A stretch of 64,000 bases of DNA, taken from positions 2,688,001-2,752,000 of the forward strand of contig CBDCTJ010000007.1 of NCBI GenBank assembly GCA_965222115.1. Direction: 5' to 3'. This DNA is from Planctomycetota bacterium (GTDB taxonomy: Bacteria > Planctomycetota > PLA2 > JAEUHO01). The notes beneath the pieces were generated by a model. It was not told the DNA's origin. It saw only the letters and a list, made by a program, of their open reading frames with translations, and made no database searches. Shown in pieces: positions 4,889 to 63,155 of the stretch. The position numbers were made by a program, and so were the translations under genes. Every line of letters starts with the position of its first letter. Positions within the stretch are counted from its first letter, which is position 1.

Positions 4889-4968
4889 GCCGTCACCCGA
4901 TACCCGTCAGCCGACACCCGGACTCCACTGTGAGCATCCGAAGATCGATTCGCATCGAACGGTGGACG
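4889..4968 (+). repeat. solo composite repeat copy E (degenerate)
   Basis: gccgtca-cccgata-cccgtca-gccgaca-cccggactccactgtgagcatccg..gattcgc..gtggac; matches the copies at 42720, 43422 and 44129. Confidence 0.8.
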
Positions 4969-35319: not shown

Positions 35320-36321
35320 CTAGGTGAACACCGTGGGCTGATCCGTCTGGATGAATCGACCCAGATATACCAACGCGTCGTCCAATGTAACTTTCACGTC
35401 GTATTTATCGGCGGGCGGATTGAGCGTGATAACGTGAGGCGCAGCTTCTGCGTAGAATCCCTCAGTGCGTTTCACATCCTGATAACCACTTGCAAAACGT
35501 ACTTGAGTCTGCAACAAGAATGGCCCACGCCATTCGCGATCCTTCGTGTCTACGAAGAATCTTATGACAACATGGTCGGAAGCAAGATTGACCTGTTGAA
35601 CGAATGTCGCGCGCTTCCAAAACATGCGTGCCGGGCTCTCAAGACGCACTTTGGACATCCATCGATGCTCGGCAGGTCCATCCAAGAGATTCAGCAGCGT
35701 GTCTCGCTCTGCGGCCGAGCGGCACACGACCCAGCGTAAGTGCTTCAGATCGAGCTTGTCGGGAACGAGAACCTCCGAGTGCCTAGCATTCAGGATTTCG
35801 GCCCGATTGTGAGATCCAGGGCGCCCGACGCCAGAGTCGTGATACACCCATCGCCAGTTCATCGACTCCAGGAACGCGAGGCCAGATCCTCTCTCGGCAT
35901 ACTTCGTCATGCGCCCCTTCGTGAATACGACTCCACGCTGGCTCAAGATCTTCGGCGCCTGAAAGAGGAGATAGACGGGCACTGGCATATGCGCGCCACC
36001 CTGCACCATGGGACGCGGTCGAACACCTTCGTTCGCAAACTGAGTAGGCGCGCGCGGTCGAAAGTAGAGACGGACCCATCGGCGGTCCGCCTCATCTAGA
36101 TCTGCAACAAGACTTAGGTCGGCCGAGTCAACAGCGATGGTCCCAGCCAATTCCGCAGCTGCACGCGATAGAAGGCAGCCGGCGTTCAAAATTCTAGCGA
36201 TGTTTTCCACGTGGTCAGAGCGATAGACAAACATCGGCCACCAACGACGCGCCTTATCGAGAGATGCAATTGTTGGTAATCGGTCTACAAATGCTGCGGC
36301 TTCATCGGGCGTTAGGCTCAT
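35320..36321 (-). CDS. darT: DarT-like ssDNA ADP-ribosyltransferase toxin (DUF4433)
   Basis: HVENIARIL..LLSR, VRLYFRPRAPT, FTKG, RHSEVLVP (catalytic Glu). Confidence 0.8.
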   Translation of the reverse strand: MSLTPDEAAAFVDRLPTIASLDKARRWWPMFVYRSDHVENIARILNAGCLLSRAAAELAGTIAVDSADLSLVADLDEADRRWVRLYFRPRAPTQFANEGVRPRPMVQGGAHMPVPVYLLFQAPKILSQRGVVFTKGRMTKYAERGSGLAFLESMNWRWVYHDSGVGRPGSHNRAEILNARHSEVLVPDKLDLKHLRWVVCRSAAERDTLLNLLDGPAEHRWMSKVRLESPARMFWKRATFVQQVNLASDHVVIRFFVDTKDREWRGPFLLQTQVRFASGYQDVKRTEGFYAEAAPHVITLNPPADKYDVKVTLDDALVYLGRFIQTDQPTVFT

Positions 36322-36330
36322 TGCGGTGGA

Positions 36331-37227
36331 TCATTGGGTAGAAAACAGATCGGAGGACTCGTGTTGAAGTTGCGGCGCCCGAAACTGTAGGGCCTTAGCA
36401 GCATTACGCGACAGGCCCTCGTCACTCTTCGATACATGAACAACGCGTACGTATTTCAGTAACGCGAATATTGGCATGAGATATGAGACTCGCATATGGG
36501 CGGGCGCAATGTTTCGATACACAAACCCATGTTGGCGCAATTGCTGCCAGAACTCTAGGAGATCGTCTTCGCTGAATGAGTAGGTACGTCCGTTTGCGGT
36601 CACGCGAAGTGACGAGTCAGAAAATGCTGCACGAAAGATCCCTCCATTGGTTGTCTTCAGCGTAGGGTGTTTCGCCAACGCTCGACGTAGATCTCGAGAT
36701 ACTTCTTCATAAGCAAGAGAGCGCGGTTCAGACCGAAGCCAAGCGTCAATCGCTTGCTGATCCAAATGCTCAGGCGCGGACTCCTGAGGAAGGGCAGAGT
36801 GAATGAATACTGCGATCGGTAACCGCTTCAGGTACCTGTGCATGAGCGGCTCAACCTGCTCTCGATAGTTTAACTGACCATTTCCGCATCCCAGCGCAGG
36901 GAACGCTACGGAGTGAATACCCGCTTCCGCATACGTATCTGTAAACGTCTTGAGGCCAGCCTCGATGTACTCAAGGCGCGATGCTTGACGCCAGTGCTTC
37001 TTCGTTGGAAAGTTCAGAATCCACTTGTGCGCCGTCTTGTAGAGATGTAGTCCGCCAATCGTCAGCACGCCGCGTTCGCAGAGATCTTGGTACTCGCGAA
37101 ACATCTTGGGATATATTGCCTTGAATCGCTTCGCGATGCCCTTTCCCATGACCCCGACCGTGTTCACGGTGTTGACCAGGACTTGTGCGGGTGACTCGAA
37201 CAAGTCGCCTCTGACGTGGATCAACAT
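36331..37227 (-). CDS. darG: DarG-like macrodomain ADP-ribosylglycohydrolase antitoxin
   Basis: GDLFES..LVNTVNTVGVMGKGIA..FK..YP, NFPTKKHWR, PALGCGNG; AAGGA SD before ATG 37227. Confidence 0.88.
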   Translation of the reverse strand: MLIHVRGDLFESPAQVLVNTVNTVGVMGKGIAKRFKAIYPKMFREYQDLCERGVLTIGGLHLYKTAHKWILNFPTKKHWRQASRLEYIEAGLKTFTDTYAEAGIHSVAFPALGCGNGQLNYREQVEPLMHRYLKRLPIAVFIHSALPQESAPEHLDQQAIDAWLRSEPRSLAYEEVSRDLRRALAKHPTLKTTNGGIFRAAFSDSSLRVTANGRTYSFSEDDLLEFWQQLRQHGFVYRNIAPAHMRVSYLMPIFALLKYVRVVHVSKSDEGLSRNAAKALQFRAPQLQHESSDLFSTQ

Positions 37228-37517
37228 CGGTGTCTTCCTTGGAGCGGTCGTCAATCTCAGGGCGGTCCATGCTAACATAAACCTACTCCGGGGCAAGCTC
37301 CCATTTACCTCGGCTCTCAACCCATCGGGCAAGCACGCGCCGCCAGAACGTATTATACGAGTCTCTCTGAATGGTCCATCGTTCCTGATTGACGTGTGGA
37401 AGGCATATGAGAATCCGCGCACGTCCCAGTAGTCACGAGTTGGCAGGGAGTTCTCGTGAACAACTTCTCCAAGAAGGTCGGCTTCGTTTGGGGCGTGGCC
37501 GACCAACTGCGGGGGCG

Positions 37518-38303
37518 TCAGGCGAGCCTTACCAAGCGCGGCTTCGGCGGCGACAGATCCCGCACTCCTTCCAGGTGATTCACGAGCCATGCCTCTTGAA
37601 AGATGCCGCCCATGAGACTTGTTGCTTCGGCCAAAGTAGCCTCGGCCGGAGTGAAGGCTTGGTAGGTGTTCCGCACAAGCAAGATCAACGGCCCGGACCA
37701 AGGATACTGAGGTGCGCTCTTCGCCTTGGCATGCAAGCGCTCCAAGACAAGGGCGTCAAGTTGCTCATTCTTGATCTTCGTGTGCAGCGGCGATCGATCA
37801 ACATTGGCGCGAGTAGTCCACTTCTCTTTGTCGTTTATTCCAAATCGGAAGCGTGTGACGTTCCATTCCCAAATGCCATCTCTCAATCTAGCAATGAACG
37901 GGCCTGCGCCTCCCGCACGCAAGATCTCAGCGTCCAGCGCGGCAAAAAGTTCTTCCTGCCCACTCCTGCTCAAGTCGGGGAATCGCCCCGTTTGCAATTC
38001 GATATAGCCGCCTGGAGAGGCCGATCTTAGCCTCTCGACGAATCTCTGCCCCATCTGGCGCGTAGCTCGTTGAGCCGCGGCGTCCTCCGACAAAACGACG
38101 CGGGTGATCTCAGCCCCAACTTCAGTATTGTCACGTATTCGGCGTAGAACGGCATCCGGGCGTTCGCGAAATCGAATTTCGTCGTAAACGGCCTGGCCCA
38201 CCTCGTCCTCCAAGAAACGAAGGAAGAGTGCGAGCGTCTGGGACTCGTTGGTCGCTTTGTGTTCGTCGGAGAATCGTGCCATCGGTTTAGATCTTTCGAT
38301 CAT
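37518..38303 (-). CDS. hypothetical protein with PD-(D/E)XK-like motif
   Basis: RERPDAVL..VGAEIT. Confidence 0.55.
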   Translation of the reverse strand: MIERSKPMARFSDEHKATNESQTLALFLRFLEDEVGQAVYDEIRFRERPDAVLRRIRDNTEVGAEITRVVLSEDAAAQRATRQMGQRFVERLRSASPGGYIELQTGRFPDLSRSGQEELFAALDAEILRAGGAGPFIARLRDGIWEWNVTRFRFGINDKEKWTTRANVDRSPLHTKIKNEQLDALVLERLHAKAKSAPQYPWSGPLILLVRNTYQAFTPAEATLAEATSLMGGIFQEAWLVNHLEGVRDLSPPKPRLVRLA

Positions 38304-39897: not shown

Positions 39898-39957
39898 GTT
39901 GATCTTGACGTGGAACGTTGCCCGCGAGTCGGCACGGAGTAAAGAGGAAGCTCGGAT

Positions 39958-40175
39958 CGTCCACCGTTCGATGCGCAACGCGCAGATCAAAGATCTGCTG
40001 GTGCTTACTCAGGGTCTTCGCGCAAATGGCAATGCCATTTGCTCTTGACGTCCACGTTAAAGCGGCGCGAGTCGTTCATCGAATGCTCAAACCTGAGTCA
40101 GGGTAACGGGCGACGGAAACTTGGGAAACACGCCGATTGGTCCAGCGCGATCGGTACGCGCGGACGCTGCGATGG
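39958..40175 (-). repeat. gene-less degenerate copy H of the composite element with flanks
   Basis: colinear with 55929-56165, e.g. ggtgcttactcagggtcttcgcgcaaatggc..gccatttgctcttgacgtccac and tccagcgcgatcggtacgcgc. Confidence 0.85.
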
Positions 40176-42576: not shown

Positions 42577-42719
42577 GGTATCCCTACTCTACATCTCAGG
42601 GCGTTCAAGCGCCACGCCTTCAGCATGGTTGTGCGTTCGGGCACGATCTGATAGCAGAGCGCGGCTTGAGCGACTGTGCGTGGTGGAGCAGTTTGCGTTG
42701 ACGTCCGATGTCCCGCTTT

Positions 42720-42840
42720 CCCGTGACCCGTGACCCGATACCCGGACTCAAGTGTGAGCGTCCGAAATTCGATTCACGCCAGCTCGTGGACGTGGACGTG
42801 GACGTGGACGTGGACGTGGACGTGGACGTGGACGTGGACG
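42720..42840 (+). repeat. composite repeat copy A: 3 heptamers, hairpin core, (GTGGAC)x9
   Basis: cccgtga cccgtga cccgata cccggactcaagtgtgagcgtccg..gattcacgcc; GTGGAC x9 at 42786-42839. Confidence 0.95.
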
Positions 42841-42841
42841 A

Positions 42842-43216
42842 TCAAGGCTCGTCGAACCTTCGTTGAAGCACGAACAACATAGCGGCGGATCGCTCTAGTA
42901 TGTTCATGACACCTGAGATTGCGGCCTCGCTGGCGAGTCCGAGTAGTAGAGCCTGATGTAGAGCGGCAATGGCCTCGGTGCATTCGGCGTGTGCGATGTC
43001 GTACGCTTTGCGTTTCTCGGCTGGCCGTCGTTTCGAGAGTCCTTCGGCGACGTTTAGGGCAACGCTGATACTTGCGCGCCTGAGTTGATCGGCGAGCTTT
43101 GCGTGGCCACGAGGCCATGCACCGCAGATTGCTACGCACTCGACCGACGCGGCCTGCGAAGCACGGTAGACATCGAAGCGTTTGAGGTATTCGAGCGTGG
43201 AAGATGCGCTTGTCAT
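42842..43216 (-). CDS. four-helix-bundle protein (23S rRNA IVP / Avd-like)
   Basis: FDVYR, LADQLRRAS.SVALNVAEG, AYDIA..EC.E. Confidence 0.88.
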   Translation of the reverse strand: MTSASSTLEYLKRFDVYRASQAASVECVAICGAWPRGHAKLADQLRRASISVALNVAEGLSKRRPAEKRKAYDIAHAECTEAIAALHQALLLGLASEAAISGVMNILERSAAMLFVLQRRFDEP

Positions 43217-43368
43217 GATGGAACTCCAGCGTGAAGGGATCGCAAGCCGTTTGCTCGCGTGTGCCCTTCACAAAAGAGCCGAAGGCGAAGGAGGGCACAC
43301 GCGAGCGGGTCGTACAAAGGAAGCCCTGCGCAAATGCGACAACTTGTTCTCAAGCTGGAGTTCCATCA
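43216..43368 (-). promoter_or_regulatory. structured leader sequestering the SD of the four-helix gene
   Basis: 15-bp perfect IR 43216-43230/43354-43368; inner 15-bp IR 43253-43267/43292-43306. Confidence 0.8.
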
Positions 43369-43421
43369 CAAGCGGCGCCCGCGCGTACCGGTCCGGTCGC
43401 GCATGAGTTACCGATGGCCTG

Positions 43422-43536
43422 CCCGGAATCCGATACCCGTCAACCGTTACCCTTTACCCGAAACCCGTCACCCGGACTCAAGTGTGAGCGTTCGATGGTC
43501 AATTCGCGCCGGTCTAACGTGGACGTGGACGTCAAG
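43422..43536 (+). repeat. composite repeat copy B: 7 heptamers, core, (GTGGAC)x2
   Basis: cccggactcaagtgtgagcgttcg at 43471; gtggacgtggacgtcaag. Confidence 0.92.
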
Positions 43537-43576
43537 TAGCGCACTAGCCGCGTGCGGCCGATACCGGATAAACACC

Positions 43577-43731
43577 GAACTGTCTGCTGTGTGACGTGAA
43601 GGCGCACTGGGCAACACCCTTTGGGAAGTGCTACGTGCATGCCCCATTCGCCATGAGGGCGAGGGCACGCACTCGCATTCCCGCGGGTGTTTCCTCGTGG
43701 AGCTTCTCGTATGTCACACAGCAAACAGTTC
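43577..43731 (+). promoter_or_regulatory. structured leader pairing over the start codon of the four-helix gene
   Basis: 43577-43597 pairs with 43711-43731 (one G-U, one mismatch); nested aacaccc/gggtgtt, gtgcatgccc/gggcacgcac, tcgcc/ggcga. Confidence 0.75.
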
Positions 43732-44097
43732 TCGGTTTCCTCCACAGCTAGTCGGCTTGAGCGATTCGACGTGTATCGAATCGCGCGGCGTGCCGCTGCC
43801 AGTATTCACCAGCTTTGTGGATCGCTACCGCGAGGCAACGCCGAGCTTGCAAGCCAAGCTCGACGCGCCTCGACCGCCGTCGTTCTCAACATCGCTGAAG
43901 GCATCGGGCGCGCTGGCGCAGGCGCCAAGCACCGTTCGTTCTCCATCGCTCGCGGCGAGTGTGTCGAAGCCGCTGCGGCACTCGACCTCATGGATGCAAT
44001 GGGCATCCTCGCCAGCGCCCACGCCGCACCGACGCTTCGCGACCTTGACCGCGTTCGCGCGATGCTGAATGCGCTCATCCGCCGTTGGAGGGAGTGA
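43711..44097 (+). CDS. four-helix-bundle protein (23S rRNA IVP / Avd-like)
   Basis: LERFDVYR, LASQARRAS.AVVLNIAEG, FSIARGEC.E; GGAG SD. Confidence 0.9.
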   Translation: MSHSKQFSVSSTASRLERFDVYRIARRAAASIHQLCGSLPRGNAELASQARRASTAVVLNIAEGIGRAGAGAKHRSFSIARGECVEAAAALDLMDAMGILASAHAAPTLRDLDRVRAMLNALIRRWRE

Positions 44098-44128
44098 AGC
44101 GTTCCCATTTATGCACAGCGTCGCGCAC

Positions 44129-44257
44129 TCCGTCACCCATTGTCCGTCACCCGTTACCTGTCACCCGTTACCCGGACTCCAGTGTGAGCGTCCGATAGTC
44201 GATTCACGCCTGCTCGTGGACGTGGACGTGGACGTGGACGTGGACGTGGACGTGAAC
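44129..44257 (+). repeat. composite repeat copy C: 6 heptamers, core, (GTGGAC)x6
   Basis: cccggactccagtgtgagcgtccg at 44171; gattcacgcc; GTGGAC at 44216-44251. Confidence 0.95.
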
Positions 44258-44297
44258 GCGCAAATCCGTGCCGGGATCACACGTGCGATCTGCAATA

Positions 44298-44365
44298 TCC
44301 GAAAGCCGTTACCCGACACCCGTCCCCCGGACACCCAACTGAGCATCCGACGAACGATTCGCGCC
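44298..44365 (+). repeat. degenerate composite repeat copy D
   Basis: 4 heptamers, cccggac..tgagcatccg, gattcgcgcc. Confidence 0.75.
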
Positions 44366-44421
44366 GCACGCATCGATGGGTGACGGGGACTGTCCCCCCG
44401 CGCGGGGAGGCTAGGAGCCTC

Positions 44422-45354
44422 ATGATTGATCGCCGCCCTTCCGAATCCAGTACGCGCGCGCGTGTTGCGCAGCTCGATATGCGACTTGCCCTTGAGGGCA
44501 GTCAACTTGTGCACGGTGATTGTCTGGAAGTCATGCAGCGCCTGCCGGATGCGTGTTTGGATCTGATTTACATCGACCCGCCGTTTTTTACCGGCAGCAA
44601 AAAGTTGGGACCGCGGGACCTTGATGGCGAAACGCACGCGGCTCAATTCGATGATCACTGGCCCGGGGGATTGACGGCCTATTTGAGCTGGCTCATGCCA
44701 CGCATTGCAGATATGCATCGCCTGCTAAAAGACACCGGGTCCATGTATATCCATCTCGACTGGCATGCAGTGCATTACGTCAAGGTCGAGGCCGATCGCA
44801 TCTTTGGTTACGACAACTTTCTCAATGAGATTGTGTGGCTCTATGGACTGGGGGGGAGTTCCCCGCGCTACTGGCCGCGCAAGCACGACACGATTTTGTG
44901 GTACGCCAAAAATGCCAAACAACACTACTTCGTGGCCGATCGGATACCGGCCACATCGCAGCGTCTCAAGGGGCAGACCAAGAAGGCGCCCGACACGTGG
45001 GATATTCCAGCACTCAACAATATGTCTCGCGAGCGCTCGGGGTATCCCACACAGAAGCCGGAAGCATTGCTTGAACGCATTGTTCGAAGCTCGTGTCCCG
45101 AGGACGGACTGTTTGCTGACTTCTTCTGTGGCTCCGGTACGTCGTGCGTGGCCGCCGAGCGATTGGGACGCAAGTGGATCGCATCGGACACATCGAGTGA
45201 TGCGATTCAAACCACCGAGTCGCGACTGCATGCCTACCTTGCCGAACAAATTGCCAAGCGCCATCCCGGCCATTTGACGCGCGCCAAGGGGGCGACTTCG
45301 TCACGTCGAAAACGGCGCGTTCCGCTTCCGAGTTTCGTTGTCTTACGGGCGTAG
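44422..45354 (+). CDS. N6/N4 DNA methyltransferase, beta class (orphan)
   Basis: GDCL, IYIDPPF, YPTQKPE, DFFCGSGT; AGGAG SD. Confidence 0.93.
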   Translation: MIDRRPSESSTRARVAQLDMRLALEGSQLVHGDCLEVMQRLPDACLDLIYIDPPFFTGSKKLGPRDLDGETHAAQFDDHWPGGLTAYLSWLMPRIADMHRLLKDTGSMYIHLDWHAVHYVKVEADRIFGYDNFLNEIVWLYGLGGSSPRYWPRKHDTILWYAKNAKQHYFVADRIPATSQRLKGQTKKAPDTWDIPALNNMSRERSGYPTQKPEALLERIVRSSCPEDGLFADFFCGSGTSCVAAERLGRKWIASDTSSDAIQTTESRLHAYLAEQIAKRHPGHLTRAKGATSSRRKRRVPLPSFVVLRA

Positions 45355-55916: not shown

Positions 55917-56014
55917 AAGGGCGGTTGCTCGTCCACCCTTCGGTGCGCACTGCGCGGATCAAAGATCCGCCGGTGCTTACTCAGGGTCTTCGCGCAAATG
56001 GCAAAGCCATTTGC

Positions 56015-56113
56015 TCTTGACGTCCACGTCCACGAACCGGCGTGAATCGAATATCGGACGCTCACACTTGAGTCCGGGTGACGGATTTCGGGTAACGGGT
56101 GATGGGTGACGGG
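56015..56113 (-). repeat. composite repeat copy F: 5 heptamers, core, (GTGGAC)x2
   Basis: reverse complement cccggactcaagtgtgagcgtccgatattcgattcacgccggttcgtggacgtggacgtcaag. Confidence 0.95.
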
Positions 56114-56172
56114 AGCTTGGAATGCGCGACCGGTTGCTCCAGCGCGATCGGTACGCGCGAACGGCGCTTGTA

Positions 56173-56321
56173 ATGGAACTCCAGCTTGAGAACGGGGTGT
56201 CGCGATCACGCGGACTTCTGTTTGAGCGACCCGCTCGCGTGTGCCCTCCCTCGCCTTCGGCTTCTTTGTGAAGGGCACACGCGAGCAAACGGCTTGCGAT
56301 CCCTTCACGCTGGAGTTCCAT
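56173..56321 (+). promoter_or_regulatory. structured leader sequestering the SD of the four-helix gene
   Basis: 13-bp IR 56173-56185/56309-56321 (contains GGAG); inner 15-bp IR 56233-56247/56272-56286. Confidence 0.8.
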
Positions 56322-56322
56322 C

Positions 56323-56697
56323 ATGACAAGCGCATCTTCCACGCTCGAATACCTCAAACGCTTCGATGTCTATCGTGTGTCGCAAGCCGCGGCGGTCGAG
56401 TGCGTCGCAGTCTGCGCCGCATGGCCTCGGGGCCACGCAAAGCTTGCCGACCAACTCCGGCGCGCAAGCGCCAGCGTTGCACTCAACGTTGCAGAAGGAC
56501 TAGCGAAACGCCGCCCCGCCGAGAAGCGCAAGGCATACGACATCGCCCACGCCGAGTGCACCGAAGCGATCGCTGCGCTACATCACGCCCTTCTCCTCTG
56601 GATCGCGAGCGAGCACGCGACCTCTCGAGCCATGAATAACCTAGAGCGCGCCGCCGCCATGCTATTCGTGCTGCAACGCAAGTTTGGCGATCCTTGA
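56323..56697 (+). CDS. four-helix-bundle protein (23S rRNA IVP / Avd-like), close paralog of 42842-43216
   Basis: 124 aa; 106/124 identical to the 42842-43216 product by manual alignment. Confidence 0.88.
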   Translation: MTSASSTLEYLKRFDVYRVSQAAAVECVAVCAAWPRGHAKLADQLRRASASVALNVAEGLAKRRPAEKRKAYDIAHAECTEAIAALHHALLLWIASEHATSRAMNNLERAAAMLFVLQRKFGDP

Positions 56698-56699
56698 CG

Positions 56700-56809
56700 G
56701 TCCACGTCCACGTCCACGTCCACGTCCACGAACCGGCGCGCATCGAATATCGGACGCTCACACTTGAGCCCGGGTATCGGGGTACGGGTAACGGGTAACG
56801 GGTGACGGG
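56700..56809 (-). repeat. composite repeat copy G: 5 heptamers, core, (GTGGAC)x5
   Basis: GTCCAC x5 at 56700-56729; cggacgctcacacttgagcccggg. Confidence 0.95.
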
Positions 56810-56880
56810 CAACCGAGGCGCGCTGCTTTAGTGCGCGCGCGATTTGCACCCGGCACTATTTTGCGGGTACGGAGGCAAGA

Positions 56881-63011: not shown

Positions 63012-63066
63012 TGCTGAGTCTTTGCTGATAGGCTGAGCATAAAAATCTACTACTTGCAACGCCTTT

Positions 63067-63155
63067 GCCGATATTCGTCACCCGGACTCAAGAGTGAGCG
63101 ATCGGTGATCGATTCACGCCACAACATCAAGAGCAAATGGCTTCGACATTTGCGC
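63067..63155 (+). repeat. solo composite repeat copy I
   Basis: cccggactcaagagtgagcgatcgg..gattcacgcc..tcaagagcaaatgg..catttgc. Confidence 0.88.

Follow-up and report, generated by a model that had tools for sequence, protein, structure and literature searches.

The 64,000-nt stretch of Planctomycetota DNA analysed in this work (hereafter the window; positions 2,688,001 to 2,752,000 of contig CBDCTJ010000007.1, assembly GCA_965222115.1) carries three small genes for Avd-like four-helix-bundle (4HB) proteins, of two types, each preceded by a long rod-like fold whose 3′ arm lies on the translation start. The type A gene is present in two copies. Copy 1 (42842..43216, minus strand) encodes 124 amino acids with an isoelectric point (pI) of 8.9 and matches both PF05635 (23S_rRNA_IVP, E 1e-15) and TIGR02436 ("four helix bundle protein", E 1.2e-14), as copy 2 (56323..56697, plus strand), 85% identical to copy 1, matches PF05635 (E 1.5e-15). 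The type B gene (43711..44097, plus strand) is divergent from type A copy 1 and encodes, from its ATG, 128 amino acids with a pI of 11.2, 43% identical to the type A protein; it matches TIGR02436 (E 1.6e-19) and PF05635 (E 9.1e-19, scored on the longer GTG-started open reading frame (ORF) 43687-44097). A weak match of the 4HB protein was found to PDB 2gsc (XCC0516, E 9.3e-4), a solved pentamer, and a PADLOC scan of the A and B proteins gave no defence-family match.

The leader of type A copy 1 (43206..43378, minus strand) forms a rod of about 170 nt. Its outer arms, located by sequence reading and with an inverted-repeat finder, are at 43216-43234 and 43350-43368 (19 nt, 95% complementary, the first 15 perfectly so), and they enclose an inner hairpin (43253..43306) in which the same finder placed two arms of 15 nt (43253-43267 and 43292-43306, 100% complementary) around a 24-nt loop. 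Since the gene is on the minus strand (ORF 42842-43216), the arm 43216-43230 is the 3′ arm of the RNA, where the Shine-Dalgarno (SD) motif GGAG (43227-43224) is followed by a 7-nt spacer and by the AUG (43216-43214), whose A is at 43216. In the minimum free energy (MFE) structure of the minus-strand RNA 43205-43380 (-86.7 kcal/mol, z -5.82, none of 200 shuffles as stable), the outer helix lengthens to 18 bp (43354-43371 with 43213-43230), so that the entire AUG is paired, and four further GC pairs are added (43375-43378 with 43206-43209).

The second type A rod (56164..56333, plus strand), delimited by its fold and inverted repeats, has outer arms at 56173-56189 and 56305-56321 (17 nt, 94% complementary), inner arms at 56233-56247 and 56272-56286 (100% complementary) and extra pairing of 56164-56175 with 56322-56333; the stretch 56160-56335 folds at -91.8 kcal/mol (z -7.77, 0/200 shuffles as stable). 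Comparison of the two copies shows 16 differences in the 46 positions of the 5′ linker and 3 in the 54 of the inner hairpin, all three in the loop by reading of the two segments, while the 3′ 35 nt are the same (0/35). A sequence-only reading of this DNA had described the perfect 15-bp outer pairing that holds the GGAG and the A of AUG, the second perfect 15-bp stem inside it, the retention of both stems at the second copy and the strong divergence of the 5′ linker, and each of these observations held. Perfect inverted 15-mers no more than 150 nt apart occur exactly three times in the whole window, all inside the two type A leaders (copy 1 outer, copy 1 inner and copy 2 inner), and not once in any of 30 dinucleotide-shuffled windows, which excludes chance.

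The rod of the type B gene (43570..43738, plus strand) has outer arms at 43570-43595 and 43713-43738 (26 nt, 85% complementary), and the stretch 43565-43745 folds at -95.2 kcal/mol (z -7.92, 0/200 shuffles as stable). Except for its first base, the AUG (43711-43713) lies in the 3′ arm, as do codons 2-7 after it; the SD motif GGAG is at 43699-43702.

A rod precedes every 4HB gene of the genome

In the source genome (G000), leader A is present in ten full copies (87-100% identity) and one truncated copy, and in the alignment each full copy continues directly into a type A ORF. The PF05635 profile identified 18 places in this genome, which by reading of the alignments comprise ten type A and eight type B genes, and all eight type B genes are preceded by a rod different from that of type A, the A and B leaders of this genome being only 54% identical. 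The link of the rods to 4HB genes is exclusive. In 18 of 18 cassettes (rod plus gene) a long-range helix with a span of 112-129 nt reaches the region from -15 to +6, where 12-18 of the 21 bases are paired, and the helix is uninterrupted over at least 11 bp in 15 of them. The upstream arm matches whatever start sequence is present, that is SD and AUG in type A, and AUG with codons 2-7 in type B. A decayed leader at C7 2443746-2443954 is cut in the inner-hairpin loop and has no gene behind it.

Coupling to an upstream ORF was considered and rejected, because an ORF with an ATGA overlap is found in nine of ten type A leaders but in none of the eight type B leaders; those of type A begin at five different places, mostly at non-ATG codons.

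Eight of the 18 genes are arranged as four divergent A/B pairs (window 42842-44097; C7 2274590-2275874, 2345232-2346380 and 2846780-2848013). Divergent pairs of two 4HB paralog types were seen also in the related genome G026, where two are clear (C68 62505-63644 and C47 36513-37800), and G000 and G026 belong to different families of the order. The recurrence of this arrangement suggests that the two 4HB proteins may work together.

Paired positions of the rod are conserved

The mean pairwise difference among paralogs was 0.085 (type A) and 0.059 (type B) at paired leader positions and 0.166 and 0.170, respectively, at unpaired ones, whereas in the coding sequence (CDS) it was 0.080 and 0.045 at codon positions 1+2 and 0.327 and 0.318 at position 3; the 30 nt upstream of the B rod differed by 0.53. 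The rate of divergence at paired leader positions is about that of CDS positions 1+2 and a quarter to a fifth of that of position 3. The low value at positions 1+2 against the high value at position 3 indicates purifying selection on the 4HB proteins, and the stems are as constrained as replacement sites, although the age of the copies has let third positions diverge by about one third. By reading of the listed pairs, compensatory changes were found in two stem pairs of type A (C-G to U-A) and in two of type B, one G-C to A-U and one A-U/U-A exchange, both of which alter the amino acid. Palindromes are prone to deletion, as seen in the truncated G000 copy and in two G026 copies, and yet the rod is present in 18 of 18 intact cassettes, which argues for selection.

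The Rfam search that the sequence-only reading had proposed gave no match at gathering score in the 64-kb window (Rfam 15), and with permissive filters the region 42600-44400 returned only P17, whose 14.6 bits (E 0.81) are below the cut-off of 45. Judged from the sequences compared here, with purifying selection on its paired positions and compensatory changes beside its fold, copy number and link to 4HB genes, the rod is a real structured leader, under selection and not catalogued before, that belongs to a multicopy cassette of an Avd-like gene.

Leaders of the same design in relatives

No DNA match to leader A was found in 40 related genomes, G000 being the sole member of its genus among the genomes compared, and a metagenome scan returned only distant homologues (17 loci with best-segment identities of 32-74%, the higher values coming from matches of only 27-34 residues) and no orthologous empty site. 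The distribution of PF05635 is patchy, with a match in 14 of the 40 relatives, mostly a single one, and with larger numbers in G026 (21), G013 (7), G038 (7) and G003 (5). Relatives' leaders were collected from Planctomycetota metagenome-assembled genomes (MAGs), comprising 30 loci obtained by protein similarity, plus a family search and further regions.

The closer homologues carry, before the 4HB gene, leaders of unrelated sequence and of the same design. In G003, G044 and G026 type 1 the leader is one continuous hairpin of 29-35 bp with a 12-16-nt loop, and its 3′ arm with GGAGG ends 5-7 nt before the start; in G026 type 2, by reading of the sequences, the SD and codons 2-5 are both paired with segments upstream. 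In the Myxococcales MAG copies L078 and L079, 14-15 of the 21 start-region bases lie in a long-range helix of the MFE structure (span 82-97 nt), and in L079 the start of the coding region itself reads as covered, while the rod of a metagenome family (L141, L142, L149, L153 and L154) stops a few nt short of the ATG. Through all this sequence turnover a single feature persists, the 3′ arm of a very stable helix on or beside the translation start. Among 20 relatives' loci that were folded, 7 gave z ≤ -3.0. The classical, high-scoring PF05635 genes of G038 and G033 (L030, L031, L044 and L050) have no special leader (z -0.8 to +0.9), so that the rod belongs to one branch of the family and not to all of it.

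The leaders of the two G026 paralog types are 71% identical over the last 100 nt, compared with 58% for the coding sequences, and their hairpin core is near-identical by reading of the alignment. In two G026 type 2 leaders (L099 and L107) the inner hairpin is lost and the outer pairing is kept.

Covariation among homologous leaders, a further check put forward by the sequence-only reading, was looked for in 11 leaders of G003, G044 and G043 that share a 31-pair hairpin. In this alignment (A3) 74.2% of the cells are paired, as against 39.8-46.9% with the partners slid; 11 of the 31 pairs changed on both sides, a number reached by 5 of 500 shuffles, and the covariation score was 0.171 versus 0.092 (0/500), shuffle statistics that overstate independence as the 11 leaders are related. 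A MAFFT alignment (A2) mixes indel classes and undercounts such pairs (5/22), and A3 took its place. A covariance model of the relatives' hairpin found matches in 5 of 40 genomes of the order and none in G000, and a 4HB ORF follows at every one of the 22 sites with a returned locus; antisense hits of the model score like its weaker sense hits, and for this reason no model-made alignment was used.

At one stem position a C opposite an A is kept in 11 of 11 leaders of G003, G044 and G043 (A3 columns 40/67; L108, L109, L111, L113, L115, L117, L119, L120, L122, L125 and L128), where G026 has U-A. By reading, an A opposite a C is likewise kept in eight of eight type B leaders, at about 43638/43668 in the inner stem. 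These kept mismatches sit in the middle of otherwise near-perfect stems, and L108 has two of them 13 nt apart, about one helical turn.

Limits of the cassette and its genomic setting

Each 4HB gene of the source genome is flanked by a composite repeat, here called R, in which a (GTCCAC) microsatellite is joined with a core of about 45 nt and with G-rich GGGTNAC heptamers. Solo upstream modules without a cassette stop at the rod base (window 39957-40170 and one place on C3), and on the other side the hexamer microsatellite begins immediately after the 4HB stop codon; the cassette is therefore the rod and the ORF, with nothing else. In the window, an R element (43429..43535, minus strand) with hexamer microsatellite, core and G-rich heptamers lies between the divergent A and B cassettes. 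A second one (42717..42840, minus strand), with a (GTCCAC) array of 9.3 units at 42785-42840, comes right after the stop of gene A copy 1, and an R element with hexamer array (44128..44258, minus strand) is downstream of gene B. Type A copy 2 has an R element upstream (56020..56113, plus strand) and a hexamer array with R element downstream (56700..56817, plus strand). Further R sites of the window are at 4893-4956, 40058-40116, 44302-44365 (within the R stretch 44128-44365) and 63057-63120.

The R profile matched 55 places, 51 of them on contig C7 at 2.27-2.94 Mb and four on C3. Almost all of them are grouped around the point of maximal cumulative GC skew, at about 2.76 Mb and likely the replication terminus, and the G-rich heptamers have G-quadruplex-like spacing; R is in minus orientation to the left of about 2.76 Mb and mostly in plus orientation to the right, and thus is a polar repeat. 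All 18 4HB cassettes are located within the same 0.6 Mb as the R repeats around this putative terminus.

ACGT-containing hexamer arrays stand beside 4HB cassettes in unrelated lineages. The (GTCCAC)n arrays of G000 have from 2 to more than 20 units per locus (in the window at 42785-42840, 44215-44258 and 56700-56730), (GTTCAC)n arrays flank 4HB cassettes of G026 (L059, L062 and L066), and in the metagenome family described above (GTTGAC)n is found inside the rod; L138 has a 12-mer array. As far as sequence can tell, these arrays might serve for binding, as a target of insertion or as a contingency repeat. A 101-nt repeat with two short perfect hairpins (window 39957-40057 and 55929-56029, 92% identical) precedes many R elements and also follows ordinary genes, and may be a shared terminator module.

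The neighbours of the cassettes are ordinary genes (RecJ, SelB, LeuRS and a DNA methylase). Directly after the A/B pair and the R copy at 44302-44365 comes a gene for an N6/N4 DNA methyltransferase (44380-45354), which matches type II methylase models in PADLOC. Elsewhere in the window (35320-37701, minus strand) a DarT-domain ORF (single-stranded DNA ADP-ribosyltransferase) adjoins a Macro-domain ORF, likely a DarT/DarG-type toxin-antitoxin pair. Contig C6 (48 kb) has 39.7% G+C, compared with 55-59% in the other six contigs, and could be a foreign replicon or a binning contaminant.

A consensus scan of both strands of 42600-44400 found no sigma-70-like promoter, and the two terminator-like sites of this region (42986-43007), against 1.6 expected, are both inside gene A and away from the rods. 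Joints in short contigs from four DNA runs (43390 to 43573, and 43390/43394 to 44130/44143) were considered as excision products and rejected, as they carry the upstream module of other paralogous loci; we read them as cross-mapping paralogs.

A putative translational lock

In our reading, to which we give a probability of about 0.55, the rod acts in cis and locks the translation of its mRNA, that of an intergenic, multicopy 4HB cassette. In the transcript, an upstream anti-SD segment would base pair with one or more of SD, AUG and first codons, loading of the 30S subunit would be prevented, and the 4HB gene would be translationally off by default, until something opens or cuts the rod. A candidate for this step is RNase III, which would cleave the long, near-perfect helix: helices of 18-35 bp fall in the usual range of its substrates, and the source genome has one RNase III domain match. 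The rod could also be opened by a complementary (antisense) RNA that pairs with the leader, or by the 4HB protein itself binding the inner hairpin, which would make the lock autoregulatory. Such autoregulation by the Avd-like protein, raised as a question by the sequence-only reading, is plausible by analogy. What carries the reading is the position of the arm on the start and the way it tracks the first codons in type B and in G026 type 2, as predicted by a lock and not by a DNA site. The same earlier proposal had joined a lock at the 4HB translation start to a likeness with retrons, and of these the lock is supported by anatomy and conservation while the retron analogy is not. We infer that folding takes place in RNA and not in DNA, that the sense strand is at work, that translation is repressed as a result, and which agent would open the rod.

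Several observations weigh on the other side. A helix of -85 to -95 kcal/mol has no obvious way of opening spontaneously, so that the lock needs an opener. The core rods fold better as antisense, by 0.4-10.6 kcal/mol, in nine of ten type A and seven of eight type B leaders, and the C-A mismatch kept in all 11 leaders of G003, G044 and G043 would be a G-U pair in the antisense strand, although it could instead be a protein contact. Counts of G-U and A-C cells (47 and 8 in type A, 29 and 7 in type B) are biased towards the sense strand, on which the structures were predicted. SD occlusion is not universal, since three G013 leaders (L056-L058) have a 21-bp hairpin that ends some 7 nt upstream of the SD, which stays free. 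The relatedness of the 11 aligned leaders, given above with their statistics, belongs here as well.

Two alternatives keep an RNA at the centre. The pentameric, basic Avd-like protein might bind the inner hairpin of its own leader, perhaps through the kept mismatch, and give autoregulation or a stable ribonucleoprotein; we hold this to be unlikely, and it overlaps with the translational lock, which it would be one way to hold or to open. In the homologue Avd, as described, all five protomers contact an 11-bp stem-loop whose flipped-out bases lie in crevices between protomers, and 207 of 278 diversity-generating retroelements (DGRs) with Avd homologues have such a predicted stem-loop (10.1101/2023.10.23.563531). 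Both window proteins are basic (pI 8.9 and 11.2), a non-pair is kept at one stem position in 11 of 11 leaders, and the G026 paralog types share their leader more than their coding sequence, as would fit a shared binder. This sharing is, however, equally explicable by gene conversion, the G000 A and B leaders are identical to only 54%, and the DGR stem-loop is short and tetraloop-capped, unlike the 15-35-bp stems found here. The other alternative, the least probable of those we weighed, is a gene for a structured small RNA opposite the leader, which would act in cis and in trans on the many near-identical cassette mRNAs, in the way of art200 in IS200 and of Asr9 in ISPpu9. The antisense strand does fold as well or better, the kept C-A positions would be G-U pairs in it, and the closest analogues, IS200 and ISPpu9, are both described as having antisense RNAs (PMC4513863, PMC8450116); yet no promoter-like site was found on either strand of 42600-44400, the terminator-like hits at 42986-43007 are inside gene A, and G-U pairs occur in the sense strand too, in 47 (A) and 29 (B) cells.

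It is also conceivable that the fold acts at another level. A DNA hairpin or cruciform could mark the end of the cassette as a site of recombination or insertion or one linked to replication, in the manner of an integron attC or a transposon-end hairpin, which we find improbable. Rod and cassette begin together and solo upstream modules end at the rod base; the truncated copy breaks in the hairpin loop and two G026 copies are without the inner hairpin; the cassettes stand in repeat arrays around the replication terminus, and the strand tests are neutral, as expected for DNA. Nevertheless, a DNA site gives no reason for an arm over the SD/AUG in at least four sequence-unrelated leader classes, nor for its tracking of the first codons, no recombinase or transposase domain is present among the 50 window ORFs scanned, and both Y1 transposase matches in the genome lie at a distance of over 1.2 Mb. 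Less probable again is a read-through insulator, with a promoter inside the rod, such that the cassette's own transcripts lack the 5′ arm and are translated and those that read through from outside are locked; this mechanism, fold-back inhibition, is known in IS10. The cassettes are between housekeeping genes (RecJ, SelB and LeuRS) and exposed to read-through, and type A has a 46-nt 5′ linker between the arms, the middle of which is the most variable part (16/46 differ). Against this stand the lack of any sigma-70-like promoter on both strands of 42600-44400, the continuous hairpin of the relatives, whose 12-16-nt loop leaves no room for one, and the type B conserved block, which starts at the rod base with 0.53 differences per site in the 30 nt upstream, fitting a transcription start at or before the 5′ arm.

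Meaning for the PF05635 family

Proteins of PF05635, be they named S23p, "four helix bundle protein" or Avd-like, abound and are often multicopy, and no function is known for them outside DGRs; a paper on rRNA intervening sequences of Coxiella describes them as having "no known function" (PMC4990558), and our literature search found no paper on leaders of PF05635 genes. For one branch of the family we find a rod-like fold, of RNA or DNA and under selection, over the start site of its own genes, a candidate structured RNA motif missing from Rfam. A long stem beside the gene is shared by three PF05635 contexts, namely the rRNA intervening sequences, the DGR Spacer RNA and the rod cassettes, and the architecture of the cassette, with ACGT-hexamer arrays and polar repeats at a putative replication terminus, is unusual and comes from poorly studied Planctomycetota.

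A wider, and rather doubtful, proposal would be that free-standing Avd/S23p-like proteins are RNA-binding pentamers that always go with their own long double-stranded RNA element. The rod would then be lock and cognate ligand in one, the inner hairpin with its kept mismatch the binding site, the A/B pair a hetero-oligomer, and the ACGT-hexamer array, rod and ORF together a self-regulating, selfish cassette, independent of reverse transcriptase (RT), that spreads in terminus-proximal repeats. If true, the rRNA intervening sequences would have in the cassette a free-living relative, one that hints at the role of Avd before its recruitment by DGRs.

Comparison with known systems

The sequence-only reading had likened the terminal inverted repeats around a long hairpin to a retron msr-msd and had remarked that no RT is present. 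In a retron, a1/a2 inverted repeats flank msr-msd, with a branching G, and the rod resembles this in its nested inverted repeats enclosing a long hairpin. It differs in that its 3′ arm is the SD/AUG of an ORF and that the fold is tied to the 4HB ORF in every copy. The remark on the RT was correct, as RVT_1 is found in none of the 50 window ORFs scanned; the genome's seven RVT_1 matches all fall elsewhere, C7:2631845, about 56 kb before the window start, being the closest, and nothing else retron-like was found. Without an RT nearby the retron analogy fails. Six of the seven matches fall into two score groups of three (C3:81659 and C7:881482, 1004494, 1984989, 2631845 and 3037923), whose representatives L086 and L089, one for each group, are flanked by RF02005 and RF00029, group II intron RNA domains, and are group II introns; one grouped copy is about 1.4 kb from a type A cassette (C7 2633969), which we take as coincidence. 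An integron attC site is an imperfect palindrome with conserved core sites, beside an integrase and a cassette array. The attC core motif was not seen in the rod arms as read, and no integrase-like domain was present among the 50 window ORFs scanned, in a survey that included no search aimed at an integron integrase.

A likeness to DGRs lies in a homologous, basic, pentameric 4HB protein that in them recognises a stem-loop RNA with unpaired or flipped-out bases from the same element (10.1101/2023.10.23.563531). The DGR stem is, as described there, of 11 bp with a tetraloop and placed downstream of the template repeat, not over the avd start. A DGR requires an RT, a template repeat and a variable repeat, and the window is without RT; its long direct repeats are R elements and cassettes, and adenine-mismatched pairs were not looked for specifically among them.

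The 23S rRNA intervening sequences with an S23p ORF, described in Coxiella and Leptospira, share with the rod cassettes the protein family PF05635/S23p. They lie in helix 45, where a 28-bp stem encloses the whole ORF and is cut in its middle by RNase III (PMC4990558). The rod cassettes, in contrast, are intergenic with protein-gene neighbours and with no Rfam rRNA match in the window, and the rod lies wholly upstream of the ORF and ends at the start codon. By their defining features the cassettes thus belong neither to the DGRs nor to the intervening sequences.

The closest comparison is with two insertion sequences whose transposase mRNA is described as repressed by a 5′ untranslated region (5′-UTR) structure that encompasses the ribosome-binding site (RBS), and over whose 5′-UTR an antisense RNA runs that modulates this repression, namely IS200 with tnpA and art200 (PMC4513863) and ISPpu9 with tnp, Asr9 and Ssr9 (PMC8450116). 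Both, like the rod cassettes, have the single gene of a small multicopy element with its start site within a 5′ fold, and the ISPpu9 copies are located, as the cassettes are, inside extragenic repeats (PMC8450116). The genes of IS200 and ISPpu9 encode transposases, whereas the only ORF of the rod cassette encodes an Avd-like 4HB protein with no transposase nearby, and the rods are much longer than those folds (150-170 nt, -85 to -95 kcal/mol). A start paired in a stable leader, the mark of an RBS-sequestering 5′-UTR, was found in 18 of 18 cassettes and in most relatives, the three G013 leaders being different. On this comparison of sequences, the rod is most likely a lock on the RBS/AUG and, as such, a novel form of what is known from IS200-like elements.

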